Shown here one piece after another: positions 26,901 through 42,750 of a DNA stretch of 64,000 nt (within the stretch, counting starts at the first letter, position 1; each line of letters opens with the position of its first letter). Both the position numbers and the translations under genes were made by a program. The notes beneath the pieces were generated by a model. It ran no database searches. It was given only the letters and a program-made list of their open reading frames with translations, and was not told the origin of the DNA. The stretch lies in sequence record OR352946.1, one strand, 5' to 3'. This DNA is from Escherichia phage AV116.

Positions 26901-27428
26901 TTATGCGTGAACCGTCTTTAAACGTTCTTCAAATTTCCGAAGAGTACTAATACGTTCTGCTTTCTGTTTTGTATAGTTTGCAATACGTTCTGAAGTGAGA
27001 GCGTATCGTTCGTTTACTGTTTCTTTCATGAAGTCAGGGATTTCACGAGAAGCTTTAATTTCATCAAACTTATCGAGTACTGCCTGGTCTTCAGCAATTA
27101 AATTTTCGTACATCTCGATATCTTTCTTGATGAAGTCGATATCTTCCTGGGTTACTTTGGATAAACGAGATGCTTTATCCTTTTTGTACTGCTCGTTAGT
27201 TTCACGAGACCAGAATAATGTACGTTTTTTGTTAGTGTTTTTGTAGACTTCCACAATTCCAACTGAATCGATGATAACAATCCAATTCCAGCGAGATTTG
27301 AAAATCTGACCTCCGTCCACGGTAATCTCGTTACCATAAGCAATGTCATTAAAGAACTTGCTTTGTGCTTCAGATTTAAATTTACCGTCGTTATAATTTA
27401 CCAGGTTGAAAATATCTTTAGCGTTCAT
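26901..27428 (-). CDS. hypothetical protein
   Basis: 175-aa ORF preceded by GGAGG and an early-type promoter. Confidence 0.55.
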   Translation of the reverse strand: MNAKDIFNLVNYNDGKFKSEAQSKFFNDIAYGNEITVDGGQIFKSRWNWIVIIDSVGIVEVYKNTNKKRTLFWSRETNEQYKKDKASRLSKVTQEDIDFIKKDIEMYENLIAEDQAVLDKFDEIKASREIPDFMKETVNERYALTSERIANYTKQKAERISTLRKFEERLKTVHA

Positions 27429-27455
27429 GTTTTACCTCCAGTAGTTGATAGGTCT

Positions 27456-27484
27456 ATAATAACATAACCATAGACCTTGTAAAC
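27456..27484 (-). promoter_or_regulatory. T4 early-type promoter (GTTTAC ... TATTAT)
   Basis: Minus strand GTTTACAAGGTCTATGGTTATGTTATTATAGACC upstream of the ORF at 27428. Confidence 0.5.
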
Positions 27485-27486
27485 AA

Positions 27487-27774
27487 CTAAAAGAAACTTT
27501 TTTCGGTATTTTTTCCACTGAACCAAACCGACTTCGGGATTTTTTGTAATTTTTCAGATTTAAGTTTCTCTTCCTGCTCTTTCTTATATACACCCTTGTC
27601 GTACTGGAGCATCTCTATGGCATTCTTTTGCAAACAATCTAAGGTAATTAAGGCTTTAGTTTTTCCTTTCAAGGAAGAGTCCTGGCGAACCTCCTCGCTA
27701 TATTGCATCGTAGAACTAACCATACGATGAGCATAGAGTTCGACTGCTGCTTTAATTTTTTGCATAAAATCCAT
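27487..27774 (-). CDS. hypothetical protein (frame ambiguous with 27669..27875)
   Basis: 95-aa ORF; overlaps another 68-aa ORF in a different frame. Confidence 0.35.
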   Translation of the reverse strand: MDFMQKIKAAVELYAHRMVSSTMQYSEEVRQDSSLKGKTKALITLDCLQKNAIEMLQYDKGVYKKEQEEKLKSEKLQKIPKSVWFSGKNTEKSFF

Positions 27775-27912
27775 AACATATCCTCTTTGATTTGTACATC
27801 ATTATTTTTAAATATTTCTATGCCCTCAGTAGGTTCCTGGTGTCCTTCTTTGAGGTAAGCCATATGATTATTCATCTTTATGGCTTTTGTTACCTCAGAA
27901 CTTCCTATAAGC

Positions 27913-28905
27913 TTATTTCAGTAAAGTTACTTCGGAGATTTCTTCCCAACCATCTTTATCAGTTGAAATAAAATCTGCTACATAAAGAGCCGTACGTAAT
28001 GATACATTGCGAAGACGAGATACGTTAGCCTTCATCCAGGACAATGCTTTATACGTTTCTGCATCCGTCAGACCACGTTTCTGCATCATGTCAGTAGATA
28101 ATATTACATCTTCAACTCGAACCATAATCTCTTCATTAGAGTGTACTCCAAGGTCGAGATACACTGAACGAGATACTAAAGCTTGAAGGTGTGGAGCAAG
28201 TTTCGAACCGCGTTCTAACTCTTTATCGATATCAACGTTTGTAATGAAAACGATAGTACCTTCAAACTCAAATTCTTTATCAATACCCTTATCATCGAGA
28301 TAAGATGACGCAGTGCTCCAACAAACTTTGCGTTTATCTCCGGTATCTAATGCTGCTTTAAGAAGATTCAAGATGTCCATATCTGAGAATACGTCAACGT
28401 CGTCGATTAAGAGAACGCTGTCTGCATCACGGTTGAGCCAAAGTTGTTCGTAAAGGCCAATACCAGAGATTTTACCATTAATACTTTTGTATTTGATGAA
28501 ACCATTATCATTAGCATTATTAAGTGCTTTATCCAGAGAATACGTCTTACCAATACCTGCTGCACCTGAAATAATGAGTGAACGAATTTTGCCATCAATA
28601 ATGCCATTCGTCATCATGTTCATTACTTTAAAGCGTTTGTTGATACGAGTTTTCATATCTTCAGTGCTTTCAGCAACTGCAACTGGTGATGTCTCAACTC
28701 CTTCCATTACGATGTCTGATTTGAAGACCCATACTCCACGTTCAGAACCATCAATCATAACGAAAATTTTACCATCACCTAAGTGGGAACATTCAGGATT
28801 AAGCTTTGCCGGGAACCAGGTCTTTGTGGCAACATAAGAACCAGAGATTTCGTTATTACGATAGATACCTTTTTTGATTTGAACGTTGAACATTTTATTC
28901 TCCAA
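27913..28905 (-). CDS. P-loop NTPase
   Basis: 330 aa; Walker A SGAAGIGKTY and Walker B LLIDDVD. Confidence 0.6.
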   Translation of the reverse strand: MENKMFNVQIKKGIYRNNEISGSYVATKTWFPAKLNPECSHLGDGKIFVMIDGSERGVWVFKSDIVMEGVETSPVAVAESTEDMKTRINKRFKVMNMMTNGIIDGKIRSLIISGAAGIGKTYSLDKALNNANDNGFIKYKSINGKISGIGLYEQLWLNRDADSVLLIDDVDVFSDMDILNLLKAALDTGDKRKVCWSTASSYLDDKGIDKEFEFEGTIVFITNVDIDKELERGSKLAPHLQALVSRSVYLDLGVHSNEEIMVRVEDVILSTDMMQKRGLTDAETYKALSWMKANVSRLRNVSLRTALYVADFISTDKDGWEEISEVTLLK

Positions 28906-28932
28906 ATTTACTCATTTCGTTTCGATAGGTCT

Positions 28933-28961
28933 ATAATAACATGTTTAAAGCAAAAGTAAAC
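28933..28961 (-). promoter_or_regulatory. T4 early-type promoter
   Basis: GTTTAC and TATTAT elements upstream of the ATPase gene start at 28905. Confidence 0.45.
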
Positions 28962-28963
28962 AA

Positions 28964-29182
28964 TTATTTGCGACGAGTTTTTTTGGTAAGAGGTTGAAAG
29001 AACACTGCTTTACCAGCAGGAGTCAAAGTGACTCGTAATGCATTACCGATTCCCAAGGATGCTTTAACCAGACCTTTAGATTTCAGTTCACCGAATGCTT
29101 GACGTTGGTCTGCATCACGAGTGTTAACCATAAGACCTTTATCACCAGCTTCACGAATCATTTCTAACATTTTGGTTTTCAT
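28964..29182 (-). CDS. hypothetical protein
   Basis: Start set at internal ATG (MKTKMLEMI) preceded by GAGGAG; track start 29239 lies inside promoter sequence. Confidence 0.45.
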   Translation of the reverse strand: MKTKMLEMIREAGDKGLMVNTRDADQRQAFGELKSKGLVKASLGIGNALRVTLTPAGKAVFFQPLTKKTRRK

Positions 29183-29285
29183 TTTGTTCTCCTCTTGTTT
29201 TGATAGGTCTATAATAACATATCCTAAAAGCATGTACACTACTTTTTAAAAATATTTGACCCCCTAAAGGGCCCGAAGGCCCTTA

Positions 29286-30275
29286 TCATTTATAGTATGA
29301 ATTGTGGTTTTCTAAGTAGACTTGCTCAAGAAAGTCATCCCAGAAACTCATATCTACTTTTTGTTGCATACCGTTCTTAGCGGCTTGTTCCGATGCTTGT
29401 TCAACTTGGTCAACGATATCTTCTAGGAATTCTTGTACAGTTTTAAACGTATGTTTACCAAGCTTAACATCGAGAATAAATGGAGCATCCTGAAGTGGGT
29501 AAACCAGGTCGCCGGTTTTGTAAATTTCCAATAATTGAAGTCCACCACGACATGCATGACTCAATGCTTTCCAATCAATACCTTCATTGGCTTCAGCCTT
29601 ACGAGCACGTTCACCATAGTTCTCTTCCAGTTTAACCAGGATGGCATTGAACTCTTTGTTAGTTAACGTATCTTGGAATTTACGGTCCAACAGACTATAA
29701 AATGTTTGCTTACCTGTTTTCTCGTTTTCGGTTTCAACCCATGAAGCAAATTCACCTACAGGCAGAACATTCTTCATATGTGATAAACGAATTACTGCAC
29801 CATTATCAAAGTATTGTCCCCATTCATTAGAACGTTTAAGGGCTTGACGAAGAACAGCCAGTCGAGAACCCTTGACACCGTATTTAGAAGCTTGCTTACG
29901 GACATACCCTAAATAAGATTTCATGTTAGTAGTATAGAAACGAGACCTGTTATCTTGAATATACTTCCATACATCAGGCAAATCAGATTTAACTACTAGA
30001 CTTTGTGGAGTGTGAAGCATATCTAATGCGACGGTTTCACCATCCGCAGCTAGTTTAAAGAAATATTTGAGACTGTACAACTCATGGTCCACGTCGTCTT
30101 TTGTGTTCTTAGAAGATGTGTTATTCGTGTTCTTGCTCATGTGTTCTTTAACGTTACCGGTCAAAATATCACGAGCATGAGGGACATAAATTTCTTTAAA
30201 ATCGATGTCAGATTCAGGAGTAGACGTTCCATAAAGGTGGCTGCCAAAGTAGCCTTTCATAATTGTTTTCATCAT
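29286..30275 (-). CDS. nucleotidyltransferase-fold protein (Pol-beta-like N-terminal domain)
   Basis: 329 aa; GSHLYGTSTPESDIDF resembles the hG[GS]x(9-13)[DE]h[DE]h NTase signature. Confidence 0.55.
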   Translation of the reverse strand: MMKTIMKGYFGSHLYGTSTPESDIDFKEIYVPHARDILTGNVKEHMSKNTNNTSSKNTKDDVDHELYSLKYFFKLAADGETVALDMLHTPQSLVVKSDLPDVWKYIQDNRSRFYTTNMKSYLGYVRKQASKYGVKGSRLAVLRQALKRSNEWGQYFDNGAVIRLSHMKNVLPVGEFASWVETENEKTGKQTFYSLLDRKFQDTLTNKEFNAILVKLEENYGERARKAEANEGIDWKALSHACRGGLQLLEIYKTGDLVYPLQDAPFILDVKLGKHTFKTVQEFLEDIVDQVEQASEQAAKNGMQQKVDMSFWDDFLEQVYLENHNSYYK

Positions 30276-30745
30276 TTAGCCTTATATTCAAGAGTAGGAC
30301 AGACTTTTTCTTTACGAGCTTTAAGGTATTCGCCTATTAATGATTTCTTACGTTCAATAGGCTCAAGTCCATTTTTAATTCGTTCTTGGTTTTGTGCAAT
30401 GAGCTCAATTTCTTTATAATATTTTCTGTCGTTATATTTGTCTAACAACCAAGACGGACCAATTACCAACCCGGTAGCAATAAAAGCCATGACTGCCACC
30501 ATTAAAATGCCTACACCAATTGAAGCTGGAACTAATGTCCATAGACTGCTAAAAACAAAGAATTTAGTTAAAATTTCCTGGCCAATGATTGTGACTGCTG
30601 CTAAAATAGCAAATCCAATAATTGAAACGGCCAATACCGGGATTAACGTTTTCCAAAAATAAGCACACAACGTTTTCGGCCGATTCCATGTACTATTGAA
30701 CGCGGCATAAATTTTAAAATGCCAAGAGTTTTCATTGATAATCAT
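30272..30745 (-). CDS. membrane protein
   Basis: 157 aa with several hydrophobic helices. Confidence 0.5.
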   Translation of the reverse strand: MIINENSWHFKIYAAFNSTWNRPKTLCAYFWKTLIPVLAVSIIGFAILAAVTIIGQEILTKFFVFSSLWTLVPASIGVGILMVAVMAFIATGLVIGPSWLLDKYNDRKYYKEIELIAQNQERIKNGLEPIERKKSLIGEYLKARKEKVCPTLEYKAK

Positions 30746-30754
30746 AATAATTCC

Positions 30755-31285
30755 TTATTTCAAAGTCGGGATAATGGAATCAAGATAAGCTTTAAGAGCA
30801 ACTGCTTCATCTTTGTCTAATGTAATGATATGTTGACGAAGGTCATCAATTTGACGAATAACTACGACATCACCGTCTTCATAAGAAGGATTAACGCCTA
30901 GGACTGTTGTATAGTCAGGGCGGTCCTGATTTGTAATAAAAGCATTACGGCATTTAGCCCATTGAAGTTTGGCCTTTTTGGCTGTTTCAGATTCAATGAA
31001 TTCTTTCACCTTAGCGACAAATGTTTTCCAATTATTAATAGAAAAACATTCATCTTCGGTTTCGATATTAACCCCACTATAAAGTCCGTGATAAAAACGA
31101 ACTTGAAGGTCTTCATCAATGTTAATTACAGATGCATGACCAGGTGGATTGAGTTTCAAAATCTTGTCTAGTTCCATAGGAAGAATAGTAACAACATCAT
31201 CTTCTTGCGTCAGAACATACGCATAACCACGTTTTTCGATACATAAATCGCCAAACAACTCGGTTGTTTCAATTACAGTTTTCAT
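30755..31285 (-). CDS. hypothetical protein
   Basis: Start set at ATG 31283-31285 (MKTVIETT); track extends upstream through a non-ATG codon. Confidence 0.5.
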   Translation of the reverse strand: MKTVIETTELFGDLCIEKRGYAYVLTQEDDVVTILPMELDKILKLNPPGHASVINIDEDLQVRFYHGLYSGVNIETEDECFSINNWKTFVAKVKEFIESETAKKAKLQWAKCRNAFITNQDRPDYTTVLGVNPSYEDGDVVVIRQIDDLRQHIITLDKDEAVALKAYLDSIIPTLK

Positions 31286-31286
31286 A

Positions 31287-31466
31287 TTATTCACCAATTA
31301 AAGTTTCAACAAAATTCACCAAAGCATCCTGGCAAGCATCAACCTGATTTTCATAAAAGTCTCCGTTATCATTTACCGCGTGATAAGCTACAACATTCAA
31401 ATCTGAATCGGCTTCACGTAGGTCACGGATAAGGTCCATCAATTTATTAGCTTGTTCACGGGTCAT
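31287..31466 (-). CDS. small hypothetical protein (59 aa)
   Basis: Below ORF-track cutoff; MTREQANKLMDLIRDLREAD...; stop 2 nt before the next ATG. Confidence 0.35.
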   Translation of the reverse strand: MTREQANKLMDLIRDLREADSDLNVVAYHAVNDNGDFYENQVDACQDALVNFVETLIGE

Positions 31467-31601
31467 TTTACCATACTCGTTTCAATAAGATTCACTATGC
31501 CGTTTACCATGTTATAAGTAAACATCGGATAATTGTATTGTATCACAACGTATACGATAAGCAAAAGTTTCATTTTGTTCTCCATTTGTTTTGATAGGAC
31601 T

Positions 31602-31630
31602 ACTATAACATAGTCCTATCAAGATGTAAA
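31602..31630 (-). promoter_or_regulatory. T4 early-type promoter with flanking 9-bp inverted repeat
   Basis: Minus strand GTTTACA-N17-TATAGT; GATAGGACT/AGTCCTATC arms bracket the -10 region. Confidence 0.5.
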
Positions 31631-31864
31631 CTACCGATTATGTTTTAAATGTTGATAAAGTTCTTCAACTTGTTTAGGGTCCAAAACAATTAGGTCATTT
31701 TCTTGGCGAAGATAAATCCATCCCTTATCTCCAGGACCATTTTTACAAAACATCACCACCATATCATCATCTTCAGCGCTTTCAGGTAAAAGTTCAAGTA
31801 CACCGTCTTCAGATTTTCCAGTATAATCGTAAAGCATAATATCCTCACATAATCTCGTTAACAT
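31631..31864 (-). CDS. hypothetical protein
   Basis: 77-aa acidic ORF. Confidence 0.45.
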   Translation of the reverse strand: MLTRLCEDIMLYDYTGKSEDGVLELLPESAEDDDMVVMFCKNGPGDKGWIYLRQENDLIVLDPKQVEELYQHLKHNR

Positions 31865-32093
31865 ACATTTGCAATTCGGTGTGGGCGTCAGCCATCTTTT
31901 TCATAGCTCTGTTAATGTCGATGTCTCCATCTTCGCAACCATGAGCATTTTCCCAATCAGATACCGCATTAGCGTACTCTTCAATCAAAAACATTAACTT
32001 AGAAATTTTTTCTTTACGTGACATAACGTTCTCCTCTAGTAAGTAAGGTTTACTATAACACAACCTGAGGAGAAGTAAACTGATAGATGCCAA
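31845..32093 (-). CDS. hypothetical protein
   Basis: 82-aa ORF. Confidence 0.45.
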   Translation of the reverse strand: MASISLLLLRLCYSKPYLLEENVMSRKEKISKLMFLIEEYANAVSDWENAHGCEDGDIDINRAMKKMADAHTELQMYVNEIM

Positions 32094-32118
32094 AAAGCCC
32101 CGACCTTTCGGAAGGGGC
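32092..32118 (-). terminator. rho-independent terminator (GCCCCUUCC-GAAA-GGUCGGGGC plus U5)
   Basis: GC-rich interrupted stem followed by a T-run on the minus strand, just downstream of the ORF ending at 32126. Confidence 0.55.
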
Positions 32119-32125
32119 TAGTAAA

Positions 32126-32428
32126 TTAGATAGATGTAGGCTCTAATTTTATTTTCATGAACTCGGCAAATTGTCTGGCAGTTTTTATGCCTTGTTCATG
32201 ACATTCAAATGCATCATCACAGGGACTATTTTTGTAATGCTTTGCCATATACTTATAGAATTTTTCAGAATTCTCGACATTTTGAATTTCAAACAAAGTA
32301 TATACGTTTTTAATCCCTGATTCCATAAAGTTATCAAAATATGGGTCGATATATGCAGTACCAACGATAGGAGTTGTTGCTGCAAAAAACCCCAGCATCG
32401 CCATGACAGCTATCGCTCTTAAGGCCAT
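32126..32428 (-). CDS. secreted/periplasmic protein (signal peptide)
   Basis: 100 aa; N-terminal MALRAIAVMAMLGFFAATTPIVGTA hydrophobic leader. Confidence 0.5.
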   Translation of the reverse strand: MALRAIAVMAMLGFFAATTPIVGTAYIDPYFDNFMESGIKNVYTLFEIQNVENSEKFYKYMAKHYKNSPCDDAFECHEQGIKTARQFAEFMKIKLEPTSI

Positions 32429-32440
32429 ATAGGCCTCCTG

Positions 32441-32653
32441 TTAATTTTGGCCAGTATTTATTTTTCGCCTTTGGACGGCCTTAACATCTGTGAGGTATTT
32501 TTCCAGCTTGCGCTTGCGTGTATAATCAGCTTTAGAACCAGTTTGACGGATATCCTCGTTTAAATGAGAAATAGAATGTCCTAATTCTCTTCGGATTTCA
32601 TCCAATTGGGTTACAGTAAGATTACGAAGTTGTCTTTCGTTTAATTGCTGCAT
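32441..32653 (-). CDS. hypothetical protein
   Basis: 70-aa basic ORF. Confidence 0.4.
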
Positions 32654-32680
32654 ATATACCTCTTGGTTAGATATTAGTAT

Positions 32681-33262
32681 TTATAACAACCCTGTCAAAT
32701 CGTTCCAATGCTTCCGGCATAATGACACATATCTATCGGTATCACCAATTTCAATTTGACTGCCATCTGTAATTGGAAGTCCGTCTTCCGTGACTCTAGC
32801 TACCATTGTGGCCTTTTTACCACAATGACAAACACCTTTAAGTTCAACAAGTTTATCGGCAATAGCCATTAATGCTTGAGAACCTTCAAATAGATTACCT
32901 TTAAAATCTGTTCGTAGTCCATATGCCATTACCGGCACATTGTACACGTCAACAATACGACTAAGTTGATACACCTTTTCAGTAGTTAAGAACTGAGCTT
33001 CGTCAACAAATACACAATGAATATCCTTTTGTGCTGCAGCCCATTTATAAAATTCAAAGATATCCATGTCTTTTGTAATTATATTGGCATCCTGACGAAT
33101 ACCAATACGAGAGACTATTTCACCTTTTGAATCACGAGTATCAATAGCCGGTTTAAGAACTAATACACCCATGCCACGTTCTTTATAGTTATGTGCGGCA
33201 GTAAGTAATGAAGCAGACTTACCAGCGTTCATAGCGGCATAGGTAAAAATTAAACTAGCCAT
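32681..33262 (-). CDS. tk: thymidine kinase
   Basis: 193 aa; P-loop YAAMNAGKS, Walker B VFVDEAQF, C-terminal zinc cysteines (CHCGKKA...CRKH). Confidence 0.95.
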   Translation of the reverse strand: MASLIFTYAAMNAGKSASLLTAAHNYKERGMGVLVLKPAIDTRDSKGEIVSRIGIRQDANIITKDMDIFEFYKWAAAQKDIHCVFVDEAQFLTTEKVYQLSRIVDVYNVPVMAYGLRTDFKGNLFEGSQALMAIADKLVELKGVCHCGKKATMVARVTEDGLPITDGSQIEIGDTDRYVSLCRKHWNDLTGLL

Positions 33263-33271
33263 AAGAGTCCC

Positions 33272-33454
33272 TTATAGTGAATTCACGTAGTCAATGAGTT
33301 CTTGTTCTTTCCTGTCAAATGATTCCAACAATGCTTGATATTCTTCGTCCGTCAAAGGAGCATATTCATCATACGCATTGGTGGCTGCTTGCTCATCCAA
33401 TAGGTCATGGATAAGTTCAAACAGTTTAGTTTTCTCTTCTTTAGTCAATTTCAT
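33272..33454 (-). CDS. hypothetical protein
   Basis: 60-aa acidic ORF. Confidence 0.4.
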   Translation of the reverse strand: MKLTKEEKTKLFELIHDLLDEQAATNAYDEYAPLTDEEYQALLESFDRKEQELIDYVNSL

Positions 33455-33945
33455 TTAGGTTCCCAATCAACAATCACAATTTCTAGTTTAGTGGAATACG
33501 TATCTAAAATCTCTTCGATGACATCCCAGTTTCCACCACCAATACCTGCACCAATTCTTGGCATATAAATTACAGGCTTTGTTATCTTATTCTTTCCGAA
33601 TTCATTTAATTCTATTATACAATTCATTAAAGCAGAGTACTCAAAATTAGGTCCCGGCTCAAACTGTGTATAAAGATTAAAGCAATAAGCTTTATGGGTC
33701 TTAAAATATTTTTCATAAACCGAATAAGTCCCGAGTTTAGACTTGTCTCCGAATTCGGTTTGAAGTTTATCGGCTTCCAGAATTTTTGGATAAGCCTTTG
33801 CTAATTGTCCTGCCACACCAGCGCCCATTGTATGAAAACAATTACACCCGTGAGCAATATTATTACCTTTAGAAAACAGGGCGACAATATCGCCCTTGAT
33901 ATAGTTTTTAATCACTTGCTGCAAGTCCTCTAGTATAAGAGTCAA
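33451..33945 (-). CDS. macro-domain-like protein (putative ADP-ribose binding/hydrolase)
   Basis: 164 aa; HGCNCFHTMGAGVAGQLAKAYP and IGAGIGGG resemble macro-domain glycine-rich loops. Confidence 0.45.
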   Translation of the reverse strand: MTLILEDLQQVIKNYIKGDIVALFSKGNNIAHGCNCFHTMGAGVAGQLAKAYPKILEADKLQTEFGDKSKLGTYSVYEKYFKTHKAYCFNLYTQFEPGPNFEYSALMNCIIELNEFGKNKITKPVIYMPRIGAGIGGGNWDVIEEILDTYSTKLEIVIVDWEPK

Positions 33946-34255
33946 CTAGACGGTCCACCATAGAATTGCATGCCGCCTTATCTTTAGGTTCCGCCACCGA
34001 GCATTCTAATATTTGCCATTTTTTATAGTATCTTTTAATTAAGGTAGACGCCTTGAACCTACTAGACGCCCCATCTTTTTCTCCGTCTTTATACGCATAT
34101 AACAATTTTTGTGAAAAATCTACTTTACACTCTTGACTTTTACCACAATAATCAGACGCCGTTCTGTTTGTATACTCCGTTACATCAGTATATGTAGTAT
34201 TAGCAAGAGCGTTAAATGAAACCAAGCCAACTATTAAAGCCAACATTTTGGTCAT
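33908..34255 (-). CDS. secreted cysteine-containing protein
   Basis: 115 aa; signal peptide MTKMLALIVGLVSFNALA; four Cys. Confidence 0.5.
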   Translation of the reverse strand: MTKMLALIVGLVSFNALANTTYTDVTEYTNRTASDYCGKSQECKVDFSQKLLYAYKDGEKDGASSRFKASTLIKRYYKKWQILECSVAEPKDKAACNSMVDRLVDSYTRGLAASD

Positions 34256-34794
34256 TCTTTTATTTCCAGTAGTTTATTTGATTTAAGGTAATTAGCCTTT
34301 TCTAGGACTTCAGAAGCATATTTACTTCCAGCACTTGTCTTCCATCCCGCATTATATGAGGATATGGCTTTCCTTATATCCCCGTTATGTATATTTAACC
34401 AATAAGAAAATTCGATATAAGCCCATCTGGCTGAATTAGACCGCTTAGATAGCATTTTCTTAATTTGGGCATCAGTCATATTATAACCAAGCTGGTTAAT
34501 TCTTGCCCTCATTGTTGGTAGATAGTTTTGGAACATTCCATACGCATGGTGACCTTTCTTATCTTTAAGATTAATACCGGCAGATGATTCCTGCCATAGT
34601 ATTGCGGCCATTATGTATCCAAGTCCTTTCTTATGCATATTTTCATGCGTTTTAAATTTTCCGTCCTTAGAAAACTGTTCCCCAAACTGATAAGCATAAT
34701 TCAAGTTATCGAGTTGGACATTACTAAAAGTATGCTCGGAGCTATGTGCTGATAACGAAAGAGCAAATAGACCAGCGAGTAGTGCTTTTCTCAT
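34252..34794 (-). CDS. secreted lytic transglycosylase (SLT domain)
   Basis: 180 aa; signal peptide plus WQESS...YGMFQ...SYNAG motifs of family-1 lytic transglycosylases. Confidence 0.6.
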   Translation of the reverse strand: MRKALLAGLFALSLSAHSSEHTFSNVQLDNLNYAYQFGEQFSKDGKFKTHENMHKKGLGYIMAAILWQESSAGINLKDKKGHHAYGMFQNYLPTMRARINQLGYNMTDAQIKKMLSKRSNSARWAYIEFSYWLNIHNGDIRKAISSYNAGWKTSAGSKYASEVLEKANYLKSNKLLEIKE

Positions 34795-34802
34795 GTTTAC
34801 CT

Positions 34803-35261
34803 CTAGATTTTAATCACTGCTTTAGAAGCTTTTCCTGGTAGTCGTTTACTGTTAATAATAGCCATTCTACATTGAAGAGTCTTCATTTTGAATGCCGGAT
34901 TTTCGCGACAAACTGTAAGTCCTAACCAAAGATTTCCGTCAGTTATTTCTAAACGGCCTGGGCGATATTCGACACCTTCGACAAAATCTTCATCAACATC
35001 CGGACGTGCCGGCATTGATAAAAATTCTGCAACTTCTTTAACGTGATTTTTTACTTTATGAAATAATTCAAAAACGTAATTCTCATCTATTTCTCTCTGG
35101 ATGGCACGATCTAAGAGATGTTGAGAATACTTGATATGAAAGCCTGGTAGTCCAAGAGACTTTGCAGCATCTTTTATACCGGCATTTATTTTGCGGAACT
35201 CCGTTTCAAAGATTCGACGGAGTTTATTACGGCGGATAAAAACATCCGAATTGATAGTCAT
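34803..35261 (-). CDS. regB: RegB endoribonuclease
   Basis: 152 aa; close match to T4 RegB (FIRRNKLRR.FE.EFR...HLLDRAIQREIDE.YVFELFHK). Confidence 0.93.
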   Translation of the reverse strand: MTINSDVFIRRNKLRRIFETEFRKINAGIKDAAKSLGLPGFHIKYSQHLLDRAIQREIDENYVFELFHKVKNHVKEVAEFLSMPARPDVDEDFVEGVEYRPGRLEITDGNLWLGLTVCRENPAFKMKTLQCRMAIINSKRLPGKASKAVIKI

Positions 35262-35322
35262 TTTGATTTCTCCTCTAGTTGACAGGTCTATAGTAACACA
35301 ACTAGAGGAGAAGTAAACTACT

Positions 35323-35538
35323 TTATTGATAAAATGGAGTTAAAGCCCAGGATTCTTTAGATACTATATTGGCGAAATGCCTCATCTCTTCGATTTGGCG
35401 ACGACGCTGGTCAGCATAGTCTTCTTCGCCTTCTTCCTTACAGTCTTCAAGGTCTTCTTCAAGATACTTTAAGTATTCACTACAAATTTTGTTGACCTTT
35501 TCTTGGAAGTCCAATAACCCAGTAATAGTAGAAGCCAT
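35323..35538 (-). CDS. hypothetical protein
   Basis: 71-aa acidic ORF. Confidence 0.4.
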   Translation of the reverse strand: MASTITGLLDFQEKVNKICSEYLKYLEEDLEDCKEEGEEDYADQRRRQIEEMRHFANIVSKESWALTPFYQ

Positions 35539-35804
35539 TAGTATTTTTCCTCAGGTCGAAATACCGCACGACATGCCCACATGCTGGCTTCTTTTAGATG
35601 TTGCTTAGCATACTTAAGAGCCTGCACTGCATCCATATCTTCTTTGGTTTGTTGCTCTGTTTCATTTTCTTTCAAGATATATGCTTCTTCAATCAGAGCA
35701 TCAAACATCAATCCAAGACGGACTTCGGCATCTTTAATAGCGTTCACTTTACTGATTTTATCATCGGTATGCGGCTTGTAGCCTTTGATGTCTTCAATCG
35801 ACAT
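35538..35804 (-). CDS. hypothetical protein
   Basis: Track ORF 35538..35972 overlaps its neighbour; internal Met (MSIEDIKGY) chosen. Confidence 0.35.
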   Translation of the reverse strand: MSIEDIKGYKPHTDDKISKVNAIKDAEVRLGLMFDALIEEAYILKENETEQQTKEDMDAVQALKYAKQHLKEASMWACRAVFRPEEKY

Positions 35805-36018
35805 AAGGAATTTCCTCATCAGTGGCAAGGTCATATTCGACCAATTGGATAGGCTCATTAATACCATATCCACGTACAGTGATATCGGTTGACGGATAGT
35901 TTCCAGTAATATCACCCATTCTAAATGCTTCAATGAATGATTGCTCGCCTGAGCAACTAAACCAGGCGGCAAAACATTTTAAAACATCTTCAGACCCTTC
36001 TATAATCAATTTAGCCAT
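35794..36018 (-). CDS. hypothetical protein
   Basis: 74-aa ORF translationally coupled to the GrcA-like gene. Confidence 0.4.
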   Translation of the reverse strand: MAKLIIEGSEDVLKCFAAWFSCSGEQSFIEAFRMGDITGNYPSTDITVRGYGINEPIQLVEYDLATDEEIPYVD

Positions 36019-36380
36019 TATAGACTCTCAGTAAAGGTACGAGCGATAACGTCGCGCTGCTGTTCCGGAGTCAGAGAGTTAAAGCGAACTGCATAACCGG
36101 ATACACGGATGGTCAGCTGCGGATATTTTTCTGGATGCTTAACTGCATCTTCTAGAGTTTCACGACGCAGAACGTTAACGTTCAGATGTTGACCACCTTC
36201 AATTTTAACTTTAGGTTGATGTTCAATTTCAATTTCACGGGCATGCAAACCGTAGAAAATTTCCGGGTCTACAATAGTGTCTTCTTTAAAAGTCTTAGAG
36301 ACAATAATCCGGGCTTGAGTACCATCTTCAAAATAAATAGTGCCTTTATGTGCACCTTCAAGAATTTGATATGCTTTCAT
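36018..36380 (-). CDS. autonomous glycyl radical cofactor (GrcA/YfiD-like)
   Basis: 120 aa; C-terminal [59 protein letters not shown] carries the RVSGYAV glycyl-radical motif. Confidence 0.8.
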
Positions 36381-36386
36381 ATAACC

Positions 36387-36758
36387 TCAATTAGAAAATA
36401 AATTTATCCAAGTTTTTTCTTTAATCAAAAATGGGTCGGAATTAAACGCCATTAAACTTTGAGTGATTAATCCCTTAAATGGCCCATCAATAAATTCCAT
36501 TTTGAAATGCGGAATACTAGTCATCAACCGTGCATTAGGAGCAGTACAAAGAACCTGCTGCCCTGCGAACGGACCTTTAGTCAAACGATATCGTTTAGGT
36601 TTAAAATGGTAAATCTCGTAATTTTCTACAAGAGCCCTTTTATTGCATACTGGGCTGTTATAACAATACTCAAAAACTTCAATAGTGGTCATCATTGCAT
36701 TCCAATCACAAAAAATTGAGGACGAGCAATACCGCCGATGCAATATTTGCTTTTGCAA
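36387..36758 (-). CDS. hypothetical protein
   Basis: 123-aa ORF. Confidence 0.45.
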   Translation of the reverse strand: MQKQILHRRYCSSSIFCDWNAMMTTIEVFEYCYNSPVCNKRALVENYEIYHFKPKRYRLTKGPFAGQQVLCTAPNARLMTSIPHFKMEFIDGPFKGLITQSLMAFNSDPFLIKEKTWINLFSN

Positions 36759-37231
36759 CAGTGTTGGACTGTTTTAATATGGACATTGTAAATCTTATCC
36801 ATATCAGGAGCTTTAATAGGCTCGTCAATTATGTACAGAATACGAGAAAGCGTTAATCCACGGAATTTAGAACCTTCATTGCCAATAAAACTACGAACAG
36901 AATCAGTAAATAAACGGAATCGAATATCGTCGCTAGAATAACGAGAAAATTCTTTTTTAATGTTGCCGGCAGAAATTTTAGCATAAGCTGAAGTATTAGA
37001 AAGAACAATAACTGTTCCACCATCATACAGCCAATTAACAGCAAAATTAGTTACTGCGGTCGATTTACCTGATTGTCTGCCGCCGTCTAAACGAAGTGTA
37101 CAGTACTGCTTGAGTACGTCTTCAAATGGTGGGACATAACCGTTCTTACAAATTTCTTCTACTCTAGCATCAGAATGGTGTGTAAAAGCATTCATCAGGG
37201 ATAGATAAGGACCAGTTAAAAATGTTCTCAT
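36692..37231 (-). CDS. P-loop-containing hypothetical protein
   Basis: 179 aa; GGRQSGKST Walker A-like motif and IDEP Walker B-like motif. Confidence 0.45.
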   Translation of the reverse strand: MRTFLTGPYLSLMNAFTHHSDARVEEICKNGYVPPFEDVLKQYCTLRLDGGRQSGKSTAVTNFAVNWLYDGGTVIVLSNTSAYAKISAGNIKKEFSRYSSDDIRFRLFTDSVRSFIGNEGSKFRGLTLSRILYIIDEPIKAPDMDKIYNVHIKTVQHCCKSKYCIGGIARPQFFVIGMQ

Positions 37232-37344
37232 TTAGTTTCTCTTTTAGGTTGGGCCATTCCGTGGCGCATGAATTGTCCATTTCTGTATTTACCCCTCCAA
37301 GTAATTATGAATATACTATCACAATTCTAGGAGAAAGTAAACTG

Positions 37345-37647
37345 TTATTTACCTTTAATTACTTTAGCTGCTTCGATAGCCGCTTGCTGAAGGTCATCCA
37401 TAGACATACCAAATTTAGAAGCAAAGTTATCAATTTTCTTTTCGACAGCATTCAAAGGCTTGGCCTGTTTACCTTCATTAGCGCCAGGAAGAGCGAGAAT
37501 ACGCTCTTTGTCAATATAAAGGCTTACAAGTTTCTTACGGTCTTTATCGGACAAATCATGAAATGAATGGGCCTTTTTATTTATAGCGGCTTCTAATTTA
37601 CCTGCACTCACTCGCGCTTCAGTAATAAATTCTTGATATGTTTTCAT
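37345..37647 (-). CDS. ipII: internal protein II-like (capsid-targeted)
   Basis: 100 aa; N-terminal MKTYQEFITEA capsid-targeting sequence; resembles T4 IPII. Confidence 0.75.
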   Translation of the reverse strand: MKTYQEFITEARVSAGKLEAAINKKAHSFHDLSDKDRKKLVSLYIDKERILALPGANEGKQAKPLNAVEKKIDNFASKFGMSMDDLQQAAIEAAKVIKGK

Positions 37648-37710
37648 TTTTGTTTCCTTGTTTGTTTTGATAGAGTAATTATACCATATTAATACTTAAG
37701 CGTAAACAAT

Positions 37711-37971
37711 TTAAGCTTTACCGCCAGAAATAATTCCGAAGTTGTTAAAATCGTATCCAATATCGTCAACATCTACTTTAGGACTTACTACAACATAAGC
37801 AATTTCACTACGTTTTGCATAGGTGTTGATTTCTTTACCATCGCCACCTAAGAAAGAATACCCATTACGTTTTAATGAGCCAAAGTCTTCGGCATCACCA
37901 ATGAAAGCTTTAACTTTAAATTTAGGACCTTTGGCATCTGCTTCAGCGATAAATTCTTGATACATTTTCAT
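37711..37971 (-). CDS. internal protein with capsid-targeting sequence
   Basis: 86 aa; N-terminal MKMYQEFIAEA. Confidence 0.6.
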   Translation of the reverse strand: MKMYQEFIAEADAKGPKFKVKAFIGDAEDFGSLKRNGYSFLGGDGKEINTYAKRSEIAYVVVSPKVDVDDIGYDFNNFGIISGGKA

Positions 37972-37977
37972 TTTTCC

Positions 37978-38391
37978 TTAGTAAATTGATTTACCATAGT
38001 ATTTGTACCAAGTCGGACGTTGAGCAATTTTTTCATCTAAGCGTGCTTGACTTATCGCAATGGACGCTTCAGACGGGACGTAATTATTACGAAATTCTAT
38101 AGGAATGTCGGAAATATCCTGGACAGTCGTGTCCTTGATTTTGAAACCACGTTTCAAACATTCGGCTATTAGCTCGATTTGACGTAAACGTAAAAATTCG
38201 AGTTTGTCGTAAAAGAATGTTACGTGACCTGTGCCTAAGATAAATGTTGGAGAGATTTTAAAATCCTTTACACGTTTACCGTTTTGAACATGTTTACGGA
38301 CTGCACCAAATACGCGTGGTAATTCACGATACTCAGCCATAAGATGTTGGTCGGTCAGTTCAGAAACAAGTGTTAAATTGATACGGGTCAT
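37978..38391 (-). CDS. denV: pyrimidine dimer DNA glycosylase (endonuclease V) DenV
   Basis: Close match to T4 DenV ([34 protein letters not shown]); start set at internal Met by homology. Confidence 0.95.
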
Positions 38392-38449
38392 AATTTCCTC
38401 CAAGTAGTTGATGAATGTATAGTATCAAAGTCCTTGGAGGAAGTAAACA

Positions 38450-38731
38450 CTATTTTTCTGAAGCGCCTGAAATATATTTTTCAAGACGCTGTTTCATCAA
38501 CGAGCCGTTCTTAGCGATTTCTTCCGGTTTATCGCACATACGCAACAATGCTTCAAGCTTAGCGATATCGCTGGTACGTTCAAATTTGCGAGTATCTATC
38601 TTACTAGCAAGTTCAGAAATACGTGCTAATAGACTTTCAGCTTCAACCAAAGCTGCACCTAGCTTAGTTGCAAATGTGTCAGTAGCTTCGTTAAGAATAG
38701 ATTCTGATAAAAATTCACTATATGTTTTCAT
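38450..38731 (-). CDS. internal-protein-like protein with capsid-targeting sequence
   Basis: [11 protein letters not shown]-terminus; ATG overlaps the lysozyme stop (ATGA). Confidence 0.55.
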
Positions 38732-39216
38732 ATATACGCTTTCCAAGTTCCTGTTTTAAATGTTGAGATTACGCGTTTCGCGCGATTAGGTGTCTGACGA
38801 TACCATTTAGATTGGGCTAGATTTACTGCCGCTTCATCCCAACGTTTCTGTTGAAGCATACGAAGAGAATTAGTAAAACCGGCGACTCCTGCTACACCCA
38901 TTTGGAAGACCATATTGACCAATGCACACCGACGAACTGCATCTAAAGAATCATATACCGGTTTAAGTTTAGCATTACCCAAGATTCCGCGGACGGCTTT
39001 ATCAACGTCTTCATTAAATAGCTTTTCAGCCTCATCAAGGGTAATTGTACCGTTGCATTTACGACCGATCATTCTGTCAAGTTCAGCTTTAGCTATGGCT
39101 AAAGACGGGTTCTTTGTTACTAAATGGCCTATGCCAATTGTCCAAAAGCCTTCAGTGTCTTTGTATAAAGTCAGTCTAAGACCTTCGTCATTACGAAGCA
39201 TTTCAAATATATTCAT
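38728..39216 (-). CDS. e: lysozyme (endolysin) e
   Basis: [27 protein letters not shown] matches T4 lysozyme; GGAGG before the ATG at 39214-39216. Confidence 0.95.
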
Positions 39217-39250
39217 AATACCTCCCACGTTTATAGGAGGTATTTATTAC

Positions 39251-39709
39251 TTATAGGAGGGTAGTGAGCACCTTATATAATGATTTGCCCATTACATATT
39301 CCCATTGAGAAGGTTTAATTAAAGCGAATGCATCAAATTCAGGAATCTGTCGTCCGTCTGGGAATGTATGATAGGAATTACAAACACTGTTTCTGAATTG
39401 CTCGTGCTCTACAGGGATGGTATATAGGAACAGATGAATATTCTTATTGTCTGAGTAATGATGTTCACCTAGGTCTTTCAGGAAGGCAGGGTCATATTGT
39501 GTAAACCCAGTTTCTTCTTCGCATTCGCGAATAGCGGCTTCAATAGGAGATTCGCCAGGTTCGACACGGCCTTTAGGAATATCCCACCGATGAGCTAAAG
39601 AACCTTTAGGACGAGAACCAGTTACACGCCCCATGAATAATTCTTTATCTTCGGTAAGGAAAATAATACCGGCTGATAGTTCTTTCACTTTATTTTTCTT
39701 ACTCATCAT
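39251..39709 (-). CDS. nudE: Nudix hydrolase NudE
   Basis: 152 aa; Nudix box GRVEPGESPIEAAIRECEEETG. Confidence 0.85.
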   Translation of the reverse strand: MMSKKNKVKELSAGIIFLTEDKELFMGRVTGSRPKGSLAHRWDIPKGRVEPGESPIEAAIRECEEETGFTQYDPAFLKDLGEHHYSDNKNIHLFLYTIPVEHEQFRNSVCNSYHTFPDGRQIPEFDAFALIKPSQWEYVMGKSLYKVLTTLL

Positions 39710-39935
39710 CTCGGTCCCATGATTTGGCCATTAATTCGGACATAAATTCTTCAATGCGCGTTTCTTTAGATGGACTTTCACTATTAGAGACCGCAAGTTT
39801 GTAATCTGCAATAGGACAGAACATATCAAGGTCCATATTAAGGTCGTCTTTGATTTTTTCTTCTGACACATCTTTATCGTATGTGTACAGATAACTATCA
39901 CATGATTCTGATTTAATGTAAATTGCTATACTCAT
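39699..39935 (-). CDS. hypothetical protein
   Basis: Start set at internal ATG (MSIAIYIK) overlapping the upstream stop. Confidence 0.4.
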   Translation of the reverse strand: MSIAIYIKSESCDSYLYTYDKDVSEEKIKDDLNMDLDMFCPIADYKLAVSNSESPSKETRIEEFMSELMAKSWDRDDE

Positions 39936-40156
39936 CTCAAATTCCTGCATTCGGTAATAAAACGTTCAACTTCATTATTCTTGTCTTTATGTTCTTGTAA
40001 ACTACTTTTAATAAGATTAATAATGATAGCGACAGTGCCGCCGCCAATGATGCCACCAATAATACTTACGATAGTAGATGTTAATAAGATAGCAATAATA
40101 TCAACAAAACCGAAAGAACTCACCTTAGTACTAAAAAAACCATATAGACGGTACAA
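39932..40156 (-). CDS. small membrane protein, FIxECR C-terminal family
   Basis: 74 aa; one TM helix; C-terminus ...VERFITECRNLR. Confidence 0.45.
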   Translation of the reverse strand: MYRLYGFFSTKVSSFGFVDIIAILLTSTIVSIIGGIIGGGTVAIIINLIKSSLQEHKDKNNEVERFITECRNLR

Positions 40157-40400
40157 ATATAATCCATCCTGTTATCCATTGGCACTTATTGAAAAACTTT
40201 TCAAGCTCAGCTTGAGTTGTTCGTATTACTTCATCGATAGGTTGATATCCGTTAATGTATCTGTTCACGATAATACCTGCTGACTGGTCGATTTTAAATT
40301 CTTGGCAAATATGTTTCACTAAGTATGATGGACATCCTGTCCAATCTACTGAATAGTATGAAATACCTTCATTGCCGTCGTCTATATTATTGTTAATCAT
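40131..40400 (-). CDS. hypothetical protein
   Basis: 89-aa ORF. Confidence 0.4.
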   Translation of the reverse strand: MINNNIDDGNEGISYYSVDWTGCPSYLVKHICQEFKIDQSAGIIVNRYINGYQPIDEVIRTTQAELEKFFNKCQWITGWIIFVPSIWFF

Positions 40401-41086
40401 TACCAGCCTTCCATAGGGAATTCCAGATAAACTTGAGCATTGACACGAATTTCATTGGTAATCTTTTTAACTCGGTCTGTATTACGAGATACACGTCCGA
40501 ACCAACGCCATCCGTTACTAATTGCACGAGAACCAGTGTGCCATGTTTGCCAATCAAACTGAAGAAGAGTACGATCTGGAGCTTCCCATTTCTCTAGTTC
40601 GCCTTTTTCGATTTTTTCGAGGACTTCTTTGTGCCACTGGCGATAGATAAGTTCGCCATCAGGAATCTGACTGAACTCTGCAGTTCCTGTTGCAAAATGA
40701 GTAGGACACACATCAGCGTTAACAAGACCAAGAATATGTTCAGACAAATAGCGAGGATTGTCATAGTCAGGTTGTCCTGCAGTAATAAAATGTTGACCAA
40801 CCGGAATATCCGGGCGTGGTACGTCATCATGGTGATAACCAGGAATAGCAGGATACCAAACAGGCATCAGCATGTGGACTCGTGAATCAAATACTACATC
40901 CGAGTCTTTCCAATCGTCAGGGAGATTTTGGATAAAGCTACGAGTAATTGGACCGCCATTATCAAAAGCAAAATTCAAATCGCAATTAAAGAACATAGGC
41001 TCGTTTTTAATCTGGTCATTTTTAATCGCATGAGCAAAACCACCTACTGCACGAGCTTGACTATTAAACACTTTAGAACTATTCAT
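40400..41086 (-). CDS. hypothetical protein
   Basis: 228-aa ORF preceded by GAGGAAAATAAT. Confidence 0.55.
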   Translation of the reverse strand: MNSSKVFNSQARAVGGFAHAIKNDQIKNEPMFFNCDLNFAFDNGGPITRSFIQNLPDDWKDSDVVFDSRVHMLMPVWYPAIPGYHHDDVPRPDIPVGQHFITAGQPDYDNPRYLSEHILGLVNADVCPTHFATGTAEFSQIPDGELIYRQWHKEVLEKIEKGELEKWEAPDRTLLQFDWQTWHTGSRAISNGWRWFGRVSRNTDRVKKITNEIRVNAQVYLEFPMEGW

Positions 41087-41087
41087 A

Positions 41088-41393
41088 TTATTTTCCTCGG
41101 CATTCTTTAATGAAATTTTCTAGATTGGTAGATTCAATAGCTTTTTTACGAGCTTCTGCATGTTCTTCTTCGGACAATTTACATTTATAATTGACCCAGA
41201 CATTATGGTCGAAACTAGTCGTGGCATATAATAACAATGCTCCAGCGAATAGCAAAAACGGTGATAAGAATACAAAACCAGGAACACCATCCATACTGTA
41301 AGCCTTTTGTAATACTGCAACAGAAAGAGCTGCGTAAAAAGGTGATGCAAATATTGTTAAAAGACCAATTCGGTTGGTTTCGCCTAATTTCAT
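41088..41393 (-). CDS. membrane protein, FIxECR C-terminal family
   Basis: 101 aa; two TM helices; C-terminus ...LENFIKECRGK. Confidence 0.5.
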   Translation of the reverse strand: MKLGETNRIGLLTIFASPFYAALSVAVLQKAYSMDGVPGFVFLSPFLLFAGALLLYATTSFDHNVWVNYKCKLSEEEHAEARKKAIESTNLENFIKECRGK

Positions 41394-41420
41394 AATATTC
41401 TCCTCATGTTTTAATAGGAC

Positions 41421-41449
41421 TACTATAACATAATCCTATAATTATGTAA
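41421..41449 (-). promoter_or_regulatory. T4 early-type promoter (TTTACA-N17-TATAGT)
   Basis: Read from sequence upstream of the ORF at 41393. Confidence 0.5.
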
Positions 41450-41463
41450 ACAGTTTTGCGAAA

Positions 41464-42420: not shown

Positions 42421-42448
42421 AATATTTTCCTCGGATTAATTCATTAAC

Positions 42449-42700: not shown

Positions 42701-42720
42701 TTAATTTGATAGGACTACTA

Positions 42721-42749
42721 TAACATAGCCCTATCTTGTTGTAAACTGT
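42721..42749 (-). promoter_or_regulatory. T4 early-type promoter (TTTACA-N17-TATAGT) with flanking inverted repeat
   Basis: Read from sequence upstream of the ORF at 42700. Confidence 0.5.
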
Positions 42750-42750
42750 T

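Follow-up and report, generated by a model that had tools for sequence, protein, structure and literature searches.

The stretch of DNA analysed here, 64,000 nucleotides (nt) of Escherichia phage AV116 (sequence record OR352946.1; hereafter the window), represents the early region of a coliphage of the T-even type, and on its minus strand, at 31571-31631, it holds an early promoter whose -10 box is enclosed by an inverted repeat (dyad). We found that the inverted repeat around the -10 is a real, evolutionarily maintained stem-loop, and that the element is an early promoter cassette of the promoter-early stem-loop (PeSL) type, a kind that has been described already. The explanation that we favour, and which we hold to be reasonably probable, is that these are T4-type early promoters with a selected stem-loop that acts in RNA read through from the genes upstream.

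On the minus strand the focal site (31571-31631) reads GTTTACATC TTGATAGGACTA TGTTATAG TAGTCCTATCAA AACAAATGGAGAACAAAATG. The repeat, given as 9 bp in a reading of the sequence alone (hereafter the sequence-only reading), is indeed present and is in fact longer: 12 nt, 100% complementary, with arms at 31591-31602 and 31611-31622 and 8 nt between them (the parts are listed in Table 1). The transcription start is predicted at the A at 31595 from its spacing to the -10 (for a 17-nt spacer with a TGn/-10 element, +1 was placed 7 nt past the hexamer). Folding gave -19.7 kcal/mol (z -5.0) for RNA read through the site and 0 kcal/mol for the predicted own transcript (31595-31571). The right arm is followed by AAAACAAA, i.e. 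it lacks a U-tract. The specific dyad GATAGGACT-N10-AGTCCTATC has five copies at three or fewer mismatches in the window, against 0.02 expected: perfect copies at 31593 and 49645, one with a single mismatch at 42708, and two with three mismatches at 41413 and 49317. An exact-pattern scan of IMG/VR for orthologues of the focal promoter returned only 2 loci.

The promoter module is the standard strong early promoter of T4-type phages. It consists of an AT-rich upstream region, a GTTTAC -35, a spacer of 16-17 nt and an extended -10 (TGnTAnnnT), followed by a leader that is short and rich in A and by a Shine-Dalgarno sequence (SD) of the GGAG type; SD and ATG lie 20-35 nt downstream. The module would be read by the host sigma-70 RNA polymerase as a T4-type early promoter. 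The pattern GTTTAC-N14-15-TGnTAnnnT gave 15 matches in the window, all on the minus strand, where 0.14 were expected, and none of 100 shuffles reached 15. A position-weight scan added 49683, 49355, 45849 and 29239, which have variant -35 boxes, and arrived at a total of 18 early promoters, every one of them on the minus strand (promoters are cited here by the upper end of their interval in Table 1). A generic sigma-70 scan was uninformative (68 sites, 66 expected), enrichment being found only for the T4-specific module. The sequence-only reading had described recurrent early promoters with a conserved leader and SD, and this description was borne out by the 15 exact matches and the 18 promoters; each of the seven positions that it had given as examples is the -10 box of a promoter in the set. 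The canonical T4 early promoter (Hinton 2010, PMC2988021) likewise has the GTTTAC -35, the TGn extended -10 and the AT-rich upstream region, and lies upstream of early genes whose GGAG-type SD is a target of RegB. Unlike in that canonical form, the promoters of the window can carry a dyad as an optional add-on, which 7 of the 18 lack. Reviews of T4 early promoters speak of 'additional regions of consensus' and mention no dyad symmetry (PMC2988021, PMC3014915), and a literature search for T4 early promoters with dyad symmetry found none, an older explicit description (e.g. Liebig & Rüger 1989) being possible.

Each promoter was folded from the -35 to the ATG, and the spacer was scored against the downstream segment. 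Cognate pairs had a mean duplex energy of -11.8 kcal/mol and permuted partners one of -8.7 kcal/mol, a value as low as that observed being reached in none of 20000 permutations. A stable stem-loop overlapping the promoter was found in 11 of the 18 copies (z <= -1.9 against shuffled spacers), and these fall into two geometries. In class 1 (31631, 49683, 42746, 41451, 27484 and the similar 50060) the arms extend over about -29 to -16 and -7 to +7, and the 8-nt loop is the extended -10 TGnTATAG; in the aligned promoters the inner pair is always -16/-7 and the loop always 8 nt. In class 2 (35318, upstream of regB; 38448, upstream of denV; 32080; 37342; 18881) the first part of the spacer (TTCTCC..., right behind the -35) forms pairs with the SD region (...GGAGAA) 15-30 nt downstream. 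For the regB promoter the read-through RNA folds at -21.6 kcal/mol and the predicted own transcript at 0 kcal/mol. The remaining 7 promoters have no significant dyad, in agreement with the earlier suggestion that promoter activity does not need one; two of the examples given by the sequence-only reading (28933 and 46384) are among the promoters without a significant dyad.

A further finding was that the pairing is conserved beyond the window while the paired sequences are not. In the complete T4 genome, 11 of the 24 early promoters scored had z <= -3, with arms unrelated in sequence to those of the window, e.g. AGTTGACAAGATTA/TAATCTTGTCAACT at 57990 and GACAAGACTA/TAGTCTTGTC at 20612. A scan of IMG/VR with a pattern that left both arms free returned 120 loci; pooled with the window and T4 these gave 138 non-redundant promoters, of which 52 (38%) have an ungapped Watson-Crick repeat (score >= 7) bridging the -10, compared with 5% of spacer shuffles. 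At least ten different, unrelated arm sequences occupy one and the same register in the aligned list. For covariation, 54 TATAGT promoters picked without regard to their arms were aligned without gaps, the class 1 helix corresponding to columns 8-21 against 30-43. The helix was paired in 60.4% of the cells (50.6% in shuffles, 0 of 500 reaching the observed value), and in 28-45% when the register was slid by 1-3 columns. The covariation score was 0.294 (0.168 in shuffles, again 0 of 500; 0.09-0.14 with slid registers), and cells changed on both sides numbered 113 where 67 were expected. The repeats thus keep their position relative to the -10 when all copies are aligned, as the sequence-only reading supposed.

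The same was seen between positional orthologues. BLAST placed window 31472-31631 opposite T4 57831-57990, both comprising the promoter and a mobD.2-like open reading frame (ORF), and on this orthology four stem pairs differ between window 31631 and T4 57990, all four with compensation. In the regB promoter the outer SD/anti-SD pairs of the stem are kept across phages and the inner pairs are rewritten with compensation (CTAGTTG/CAACTAG in the window, CTTGACTG/CAGTTAAG in T4, CTTTATG/CATAAAG in Salmonella phage STML-198 and TGTAAG/CTTACA in Citrobacter phage Merlin). In Klebsiella KP17-like phages the outer stem of this promoter is shorter and an inner GGGCCAT/ATGGCCC hairpin surrounds the -10, and the regB promoter of one further contig that was compared has no such stem. 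The compensatory changes between orthologues in at least four genera, the covariation specific to the register and the non-random types of mismatch imply purifying selection on the pairing.

The mismatches that remain in the stems also bear on the molecule in which the pairing acts. With alignments scored without favouring G·T and each sequence context counted once, internal stem mismatches comprised 17 sense-strand G·U and 4 A·C (equivalent to antisense G·U), where composition predicts about 1.2:1 (binomial p = 0.004). This bias points to pairing in the sense RNA. In class 1 the predicted +1 falls within the final bases of the right arm, in class 2 between the arms. Since a promoter's own transcript is thus predicted to start at or beyond the 3' arm, or between the arms, the hairpin would be confined to read-through RNA. 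In most dyad-bearing copies the stop codon of the upstream ORF abuts or overlaps the -35, so that the hairpin starts 8-10 nt past the stop. The stem-loop therefore most likely folds in RNA that is read through from upstream genes.

We also found a relation to intrinsic terminators. A canonical GC-rich hairpin with a T run precedes four promoters of the window (46411, 32080, 29239 and 15627), three of which have no dyad. Over the pooled set, a dyad is present in 3 of the 24 promoters with a canonical terminator at most 100 nt upstream and in 49 of the 113 without one (Fisher p = 0.005), and the depletion has the same direction in the window, T4 and IMG/VR subsets. The dyad would therefore be relevant where read-through occurs, or replace a terminator. 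Like intrinsic terminators, the dyads form stable intercistronic hairpins right after a stop codon, and the fact that the two are largely mutually exclusive suggests overlapping roles; unlike terminators, the dyad hairpins have no U-tract and AT-richer stems, and none passes a terminator scan. In class 2 a second effect was predicted. For 35318, 38448 and 32080 the probability that the SD is unpaired is 0.00 in the read-through RNA and 0.5-0.9 in the own transcript, whereas the SD of the focal class 1 promoter stays open in read-through RNA (0.55).

On this basis the following role may be proposed. In some 40-60% of the copies the spacer would have evolved complementarity to the sequence just downstream of the -10. 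In class 1 this would give a stable intercistronic hairpin (about -12 to -20 kcal/mol) 8-10 nt past the upstream stop and some 10 nt before the SD, which most likely punctuates the polycistronic RNA as an attenuator and/or as a protective hairpin at the 3' end of the upstream cistron, and so may fill roles otherwise played by a canonical terminator; for the focal promoter we infer attenuation, 3' protection or insulation of cistrons. In class 2 the hairpin would bury the GGAG of the SD, so that translation and exposure to RegB would come mainly from the transcript of the gene's own promoter. As repeated homologous cassettes, the modules may in addition stand at junctions of shuffled gene blocks.

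Several observations weigh against this explanation. The antisense RNA of the focal hairpin folds equally well (-19.4 kcal/mol), and with a dyad in about 40-60% of early promoters roughly half of them work without one. The excess of 17 G·U mismatches over 4 could have been inflated by strand-asymmetric C-to-T mutation and by shared ancestry of the promoters, and the +1 positions are, for this phage, predictions from the spacing to the -10. A terminator scan of 27000-46999 called 22 terminator-like sites, none of which is a dyad hairpin; given this and the missing U-tract, termination by the host polymerase at class 1 sites is doubtful, and class 1 was ruled out as a canonical intrinsic terminator. 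Over 134 promoters the accessibility of the SD in read-through RNA was 0.33, compared with 0.35 with shuffled spacers (p = 0.26). Masking of the SD as a global function was consequently rejected, and translational masking explains only class 2. A link of class 1 to GGAG (RegB) sites was likewise rejected, such sites being present in 65% of these promoters and in 59% of those without a dyad (p = 0.68).

The genomic setting of the promoters is that of a T-even early region. The nearest relative is Escherichia phage AV118 (99.9% identity across the 3-kb stretch around the focal site, which is matched by 433 phage records), filed under Tevenvirinae; Mosigvirus. DNA identity of the window to T4 is about 70-82%, and this, together with the placement of AV118 in Mosigvirus, ruled out a close T4 relative (Tequatrovirus). 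The minus strand carries genes from about 2 kb to about 54 kb, with homology to T4 in the order nrdC.x, mobD.x, rI, tk, vs, regB, denV, ipII, e, tRNAs, ipI, 57A/B and gene 1. The promoter copies sit in the nrdC-mobD-rI-tk-vs-denV-ip-e-tRNA early region, as expected for PeSL hyperplastic regions, and the ORFs behind them are mostly of 36-180 amino acids and hypothetical in relatives.

The gene order of T4 and that of the window break exactly at promoter modules, namely at a swap of denV and ipII and at a relocated homologue of frd.3. In the window denV (37978-38391) precedes the ipII homologue (37345-37647, 93% DNA identity to T4), the reverse of the order in T4, and the junctions of the swap are the early promoter modules 38448, 37707 and 37342 (window 37280-38448 compared with T4 64939-65728). 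The ORF at 45560-45787 matches T4 frd.3 (T4 146573-146815), which in T4 lies near gene 32 in another part of the genome; in the window this homologue (45558-45849) has its own early promoter, 45849, between the e region and the tRNA region. For 11 of the 18 promoters a T4 homology block ends within 60 nt, although homology tends to stop in intergenic DNA anyway. The sole indel relative to the closest phage is not flanked by an early promoter module: AV118 holds an extra 410 bp (two small tk.2/tk.3-like ORFs; L141 4463-4874) at about 33460 (window ~33458-33462). In the T4 record AF158101, a misc_feature at 133300-133313 (locus L004 8300-8313) reads 'inverted complement of previously reported sequence; corrects the early promoter Pe133295', and these positions correspond exactly to the loop (14 nt, TTGTGATATTATAG) that the dyad arms GGTAGAG/CTCTACC of a T4 early promoter enclose. 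The loop of this promoter was thus once reported flipped between its repeats, which is either an artefact or a real inversion.

The sequence-only reading had taken the repeats for a shared operator or insulator. As an operator, the dyad would be the DNA site at which a dimeric protein of phage or host shuts early promoters off or regulates them in another way, in line with its symmetry about the -10 in a fixed register, with the partly conserved core TAGGA...TCCTA that recurs in many class 1 copies, and with the shut-off of T4 early promoters, which is unexplained and requires neither AsiA nor ModA (PMC3014915, PMC2988021). Nevertheless, no recognition sequence is shared: because at least ten unrelated arm sequences are found in the same register, no single sequence-specific protein could read the arms. 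Orthologues moreover exchange their arms by compensatory changes (window 31631 and T4 57990; regB in four genera), tolerance of G·U-type over A·C mismatches by 17 to 4 is a property of RNA and not of duplex DNA, the dyad occurs in only about 40-60% of early promoters, and in class 2 the spacer pairs with the SD, i.e. part of the ribosome-binding site. The core of the right arm around +1, AGNCCTATC, is also present in promoters without a complementary left arm (28961, 29239, 46411 and 45849) and hence belongs to the promoter or start site and is not one half of an operator. A shared operator is thus unsupported, and we regard an operator function as highly improbable. The insulator survives in a loose sense, as punctuation of read-through RNA, given the distribution of dyads behind terminators (3/24 compared with 49/113). 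The fixed register has also been considered from the side of the promoter itself, where the dyad could set strength or timing, for example if it were extruded under supercoiling or changed how the -10 region melts; the extended -10, which polymerase has to melt, is exactly the loop. The register is, however, trivially explained by the invariant promoter bases, which are unable to pair with one another, and neither the G·U bias nor the anticorrelation with upstream terminators fits such tuning, while the class 2 arms, up to 30 nt apart and ending in the ribosome-binding site, are sensible only in RNA. Tuning of the promoter is accordingly quite unlikely in our estimate.

A role at the level of DNA recombination is somewhat less remote, though still unlikely. 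The repeats would then serve as short homologous cassettes, possibly as a hairpin or cruciform, by which modules are reshuffled, and the RNA hairpin would be incidental. Recombination between PeSLs, giving mini-circles, was observed in RB49/phi1 (PMC2839356), PeSLs lie near indels between PST and T4 (PMC4122927), and the breaks in gene order, the ends of homology blocks and the once inverted T4 loop described above agree with it. Recombination would require similarity between copies, however, and not complementarity within them, whereas the arms are the least conserved part and are yet kept complementary; nor would a DNA structure be expected to show a sense-strand G·U bias or be predicted to be depleted behind terminators, and homology blocks end in intergenic DNA in any case. 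A role in recombination and a role in RNA can coexist. The dyads might, finally, have no selected function and persist neutrally as by-products of the origin or repair of the cassettes (template switching, hairpin-primed repair), in agreement with the near half of promoters without a dyad and with degenerate copies such as 49355 and 29239. The compensatory substitutions between orthologues across at least four genera, the limitation of covariation to the correct register and the non-random mismatch types speak against neutrality, to which we give a low probability.

The closest known systems are the PeSLs themselves. In RB49 and phi1 these were described by Arbiol et al. 2010 (PMC2839356) as a repeated composite of AT-rich region, early promoter, stem-loop, SD and start codon; one stem-loop cut expression of lacZ as strongly as rrnB T1, and the stem-loop was read as a terminator or attenuator that keeps gene cassettes transcriptionally separate. 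Comeau et al. 2014 (PMC4122927) described PeSLs of T4 and PST with the promoter TTTACW-N17-TAYWAT and stems of the form 'AGNA-loop-TCNT', and 'PeSL-like' elements at internal-protein loci of T-even phages are attributed to Repoila et al. 1994 as cited in PMC2839356. The elements of the window share with PeSLs the order of parts in a repeated intergenic composite, the concentration among small genes of unknown function and, apparently, a position where shuffled cassettes join. The T-even versions are likewise based on T4 early promoters and have weaker, more AT-rich stem-loops, and the T4/PST stem resembles the AGGA...TCCT core of window copies. There are differences as well. The published reading is that of a terminator or attenuator and a recombination site, with one RB49/phi1 stem-loop assayed, and the stem-loops of RB49/phi1 are typically rich in polyG/polyC. 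The stem-loops of the window have no U-tract; a figure legend of the 2014 PST paper puts the stem-loops 'just upstream of the promoter'. Neither of the two descriptions (PMC2839356, PMC4122927) reports a strict register with TGnTATAG as the loop, a formal test of covariation, an excess of G·U in the sense strand, a scarcity of dyads behind canonical terminators or an SD-masking subclass.

A second system with similar features is formed by the T4 genes e, soc, 49 and I-TevI, whose translation is gated by a promoter located inside a hairpin; RNA structure also blocks RegB (PMC3014915). In these genes the ribosome-binding site is buried in a helix in long transcripts, and the RNA from the internal promoter lacks the 5' strand of that helix and is translated. 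The class 2 copies 35318 (regB), 38448 (denV), 32080 and 37342 have exactly this geometry, and in the promoters of the window the loop holds the -10, +1 is predicted inside the right arm or 3' of it, and the predicted own transcripts fold at 0 kcal/mol. In the T4 genes, by contrast, the internal promoter is late (TATAAATA), giving an early-off/late-on switch, and that of the window is early and of the sigma-70 type (GTTTAC, TGn), so that both types of transcript would be made early. The focal class 1 hairpin differs further in leaving the SD uncovered.

Table 1. Parts of the focal site and early promoter modules of the window (z against shuffled spacers)
Feature	Position	Strand	Score, basis or remark
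Focal -35 region GTTTACA (hexamer TTTACA 31625-31630)	31625-31631	-	first base shared with the TAG stop of the upstream ORF
Focal 5' (left) arm TTGATAGGACTA	31611-31622	-	in promoter spacer, positions -27 to -16
Focal 8-nt loop TGTTATAG	31603-31610	-	extended -10: TGn and first five bases of TATAGT (31602-31607)
Focal 3' (right) arm TAGTCCTATCAA	31591-31602	-	positions -7 to +5
Focal leader, A-rich, unstructured; SD GGAG 31580-31583, ATG 31571-31573	31571-31590	-	sequence and folding
Downstream hydrophobic ORF of 36 amino acids; positional counterpart of T4 mobD.2	31463-31573	-	BLAST against T4
Class 1, ATTTAC -35, perfect arms GATAGGACTA/TAGTCCTATC, -10 TATAGT 49654-49659	49621-49683	-	z -5.1
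Class 1, arms GATAGGGCTA/TAGTCCTATC, single mismatch is a sense-strand G·U	42688-42746	-	z -4.7
Class 1, arms ATAGGATTA/TAGTCCTAT, one sense-strand U·G	41393-41451	-	z -3.5
Degenerate class 1, GTATAC -35, left arm ATAGGGATA, weak hairpin (-5.6 kcal/mol)	49288-49355	-	z -0.3
Class 1-like, other arms AGGTCTAT/ATAGACCT, 12-nt loop; upstream of nrdC.8 homologue	27428-27484	-	z -2.3
Class 1-like, arms GATGATGGT/ACTATCATC around TACTAT; upstream of internal-protein-type ORF (MKTYQE...)	49994-50060	-	z -1.9
Class 2, regB promoter, spacer TTCTCCTCTAGTTG (35299-35312) pairs perfectly with CAACTAGAGGAGAA (35268-35281, holds SD)	35261-35318	-	z -5.6
Class 2, denV promoter, TTCCTCCAAG (38433-38442) pairs with CTTGGAGGAA (38395-38404)	38391-38448	-	z -6.0
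Class 2, TTCTCCTC pairs with GAGGAGAA; canonical terminator upstream (~32098-32113)	32024-32080	-	z -3.1
Class 2-like, spacer TTTCTCC...AATTGTGA pairs with TCATAATT...GGAGGGG, -20.0 kcal/mol	37280-37342	-	z -4.1
Class 2-like, TCCTCGATAG pairs with CTATAGAGGA	18824-18881	-	z -4.1
Promoter without significant dyad; GC-rich terminator-like hairpin before it	46352-46411	-	z -0.9
Promoter (ATGTAC -35) without dyad; upstream of T4 frd.3 homologue	45787-45849	-	z 0.3
Promoter without dyad; upstream of ipII homologue	37647-37707	-	z 1.1
Promoter (GTGTAC -35) without significant dyad; terminator GGGCC..GGCCC before it	29182-29239	-	z -0.5
Promoter without dyad; upstream of nrdC.10 homologue	28893-28961	-	z 0.3
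Promoter directly after canonical terminator (GGAAGC..GCTTCC and T run); no dyad bridging the -10	15573-15627	-	folding, spacer score

Some further features of these promoters were observed. At 15627 the segment from the -10 to the predicted +1 holds CTCCTT, which pairs with the SD AAGGAG (15585-15603, minus strand). This is a third geometry with the same outcome, namely that only read-through RNA could mask the SD. The leaders at 49288-49309 and 28893-28912 (minus strand) contain a mini-ORF, ATGAGTAAA..., where other copies have the SD AAATGGAG or AAATGAGG, and in both a second SD and the real ATG follow the mini-ORF; this looks like a duplicated leader segment. The ORFs starting at 49994, 49621 and 37647 (minus strand) begin with MKTYQE(F), MKTFNEF and MKTYQEFI, a start that presumably resembles the conserved leader of the internal (injected) proteins of T-even phages and points to two neighbouring internal-protein genes, one of them at the ipI position. 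T4 has a repeated early promoter family of its own (167086, 163673, 146875, 70696, 55384, 27080 and 6630, minus strand). Its copies share a long leader, TACTAT-ACAACTATCAACTACTGATAC.GA...TTGGAGAATAAAATG, that is conserved among them, and most have no significant dyad.

Among the other structures of the window, the longest inverted repeat is a 19-nt repeat at 11543-11581 (95% complementary, 1-nt gap; TTTAACACGATGTGGTCAT / ATAACCACATCGTGTTAAA), which has no relation to promoters, and a perfect 12-nt repeat with a 17-nt gap (GGAACATAAATA / TATTTATGTTCC) at 48237-48277 adjoins the tRNA at 48285-48356. Rfam 15 covariance models at the gathering threshold identified only two tRNAs in the window and no family for the dyads.

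PeSL cassettes have already been proposed as drivers of modular gene shuffling in T4-like phages, and the present result mainly clarifies them. What it adds is that the pairing is selected across several genera, has the character of pairing in sense RNA, appears to substitute for terminators, and comes in two geometries, one of which would mask the ribosome-binding site. It is conceivable, though we put this forward as a tentative and rather doubtful extension, that the dyad is a lineage-wide device of the Tevenvirinae by which a gene is read differently depending on which promoter made its RNA. If so, the own early transcripts would be unstructured, translated at once and exposed to RegB, whereas in delayed-early and middle-mode read-through RNA the hairpin would mask the GGAG of the SD (class 2) or cap the upstream cistron and isolate neighbouring genes from each other's translation and decay (class 1). 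The design of e, soc and 49 would then extend from four late-promoter cases to dozens of early promoters, and there would be a structural account of why RegB inactivates early but not middle or late mRNAs. If confirmed experimentally, the finding would mean that the spacer of these promoters is not free sequence, which is relevant to annotators and phage engineers, and it would offer a handle on the differential treatment of immediate-early and read-through transcripts in these phages, including their sensitivity to RegB.

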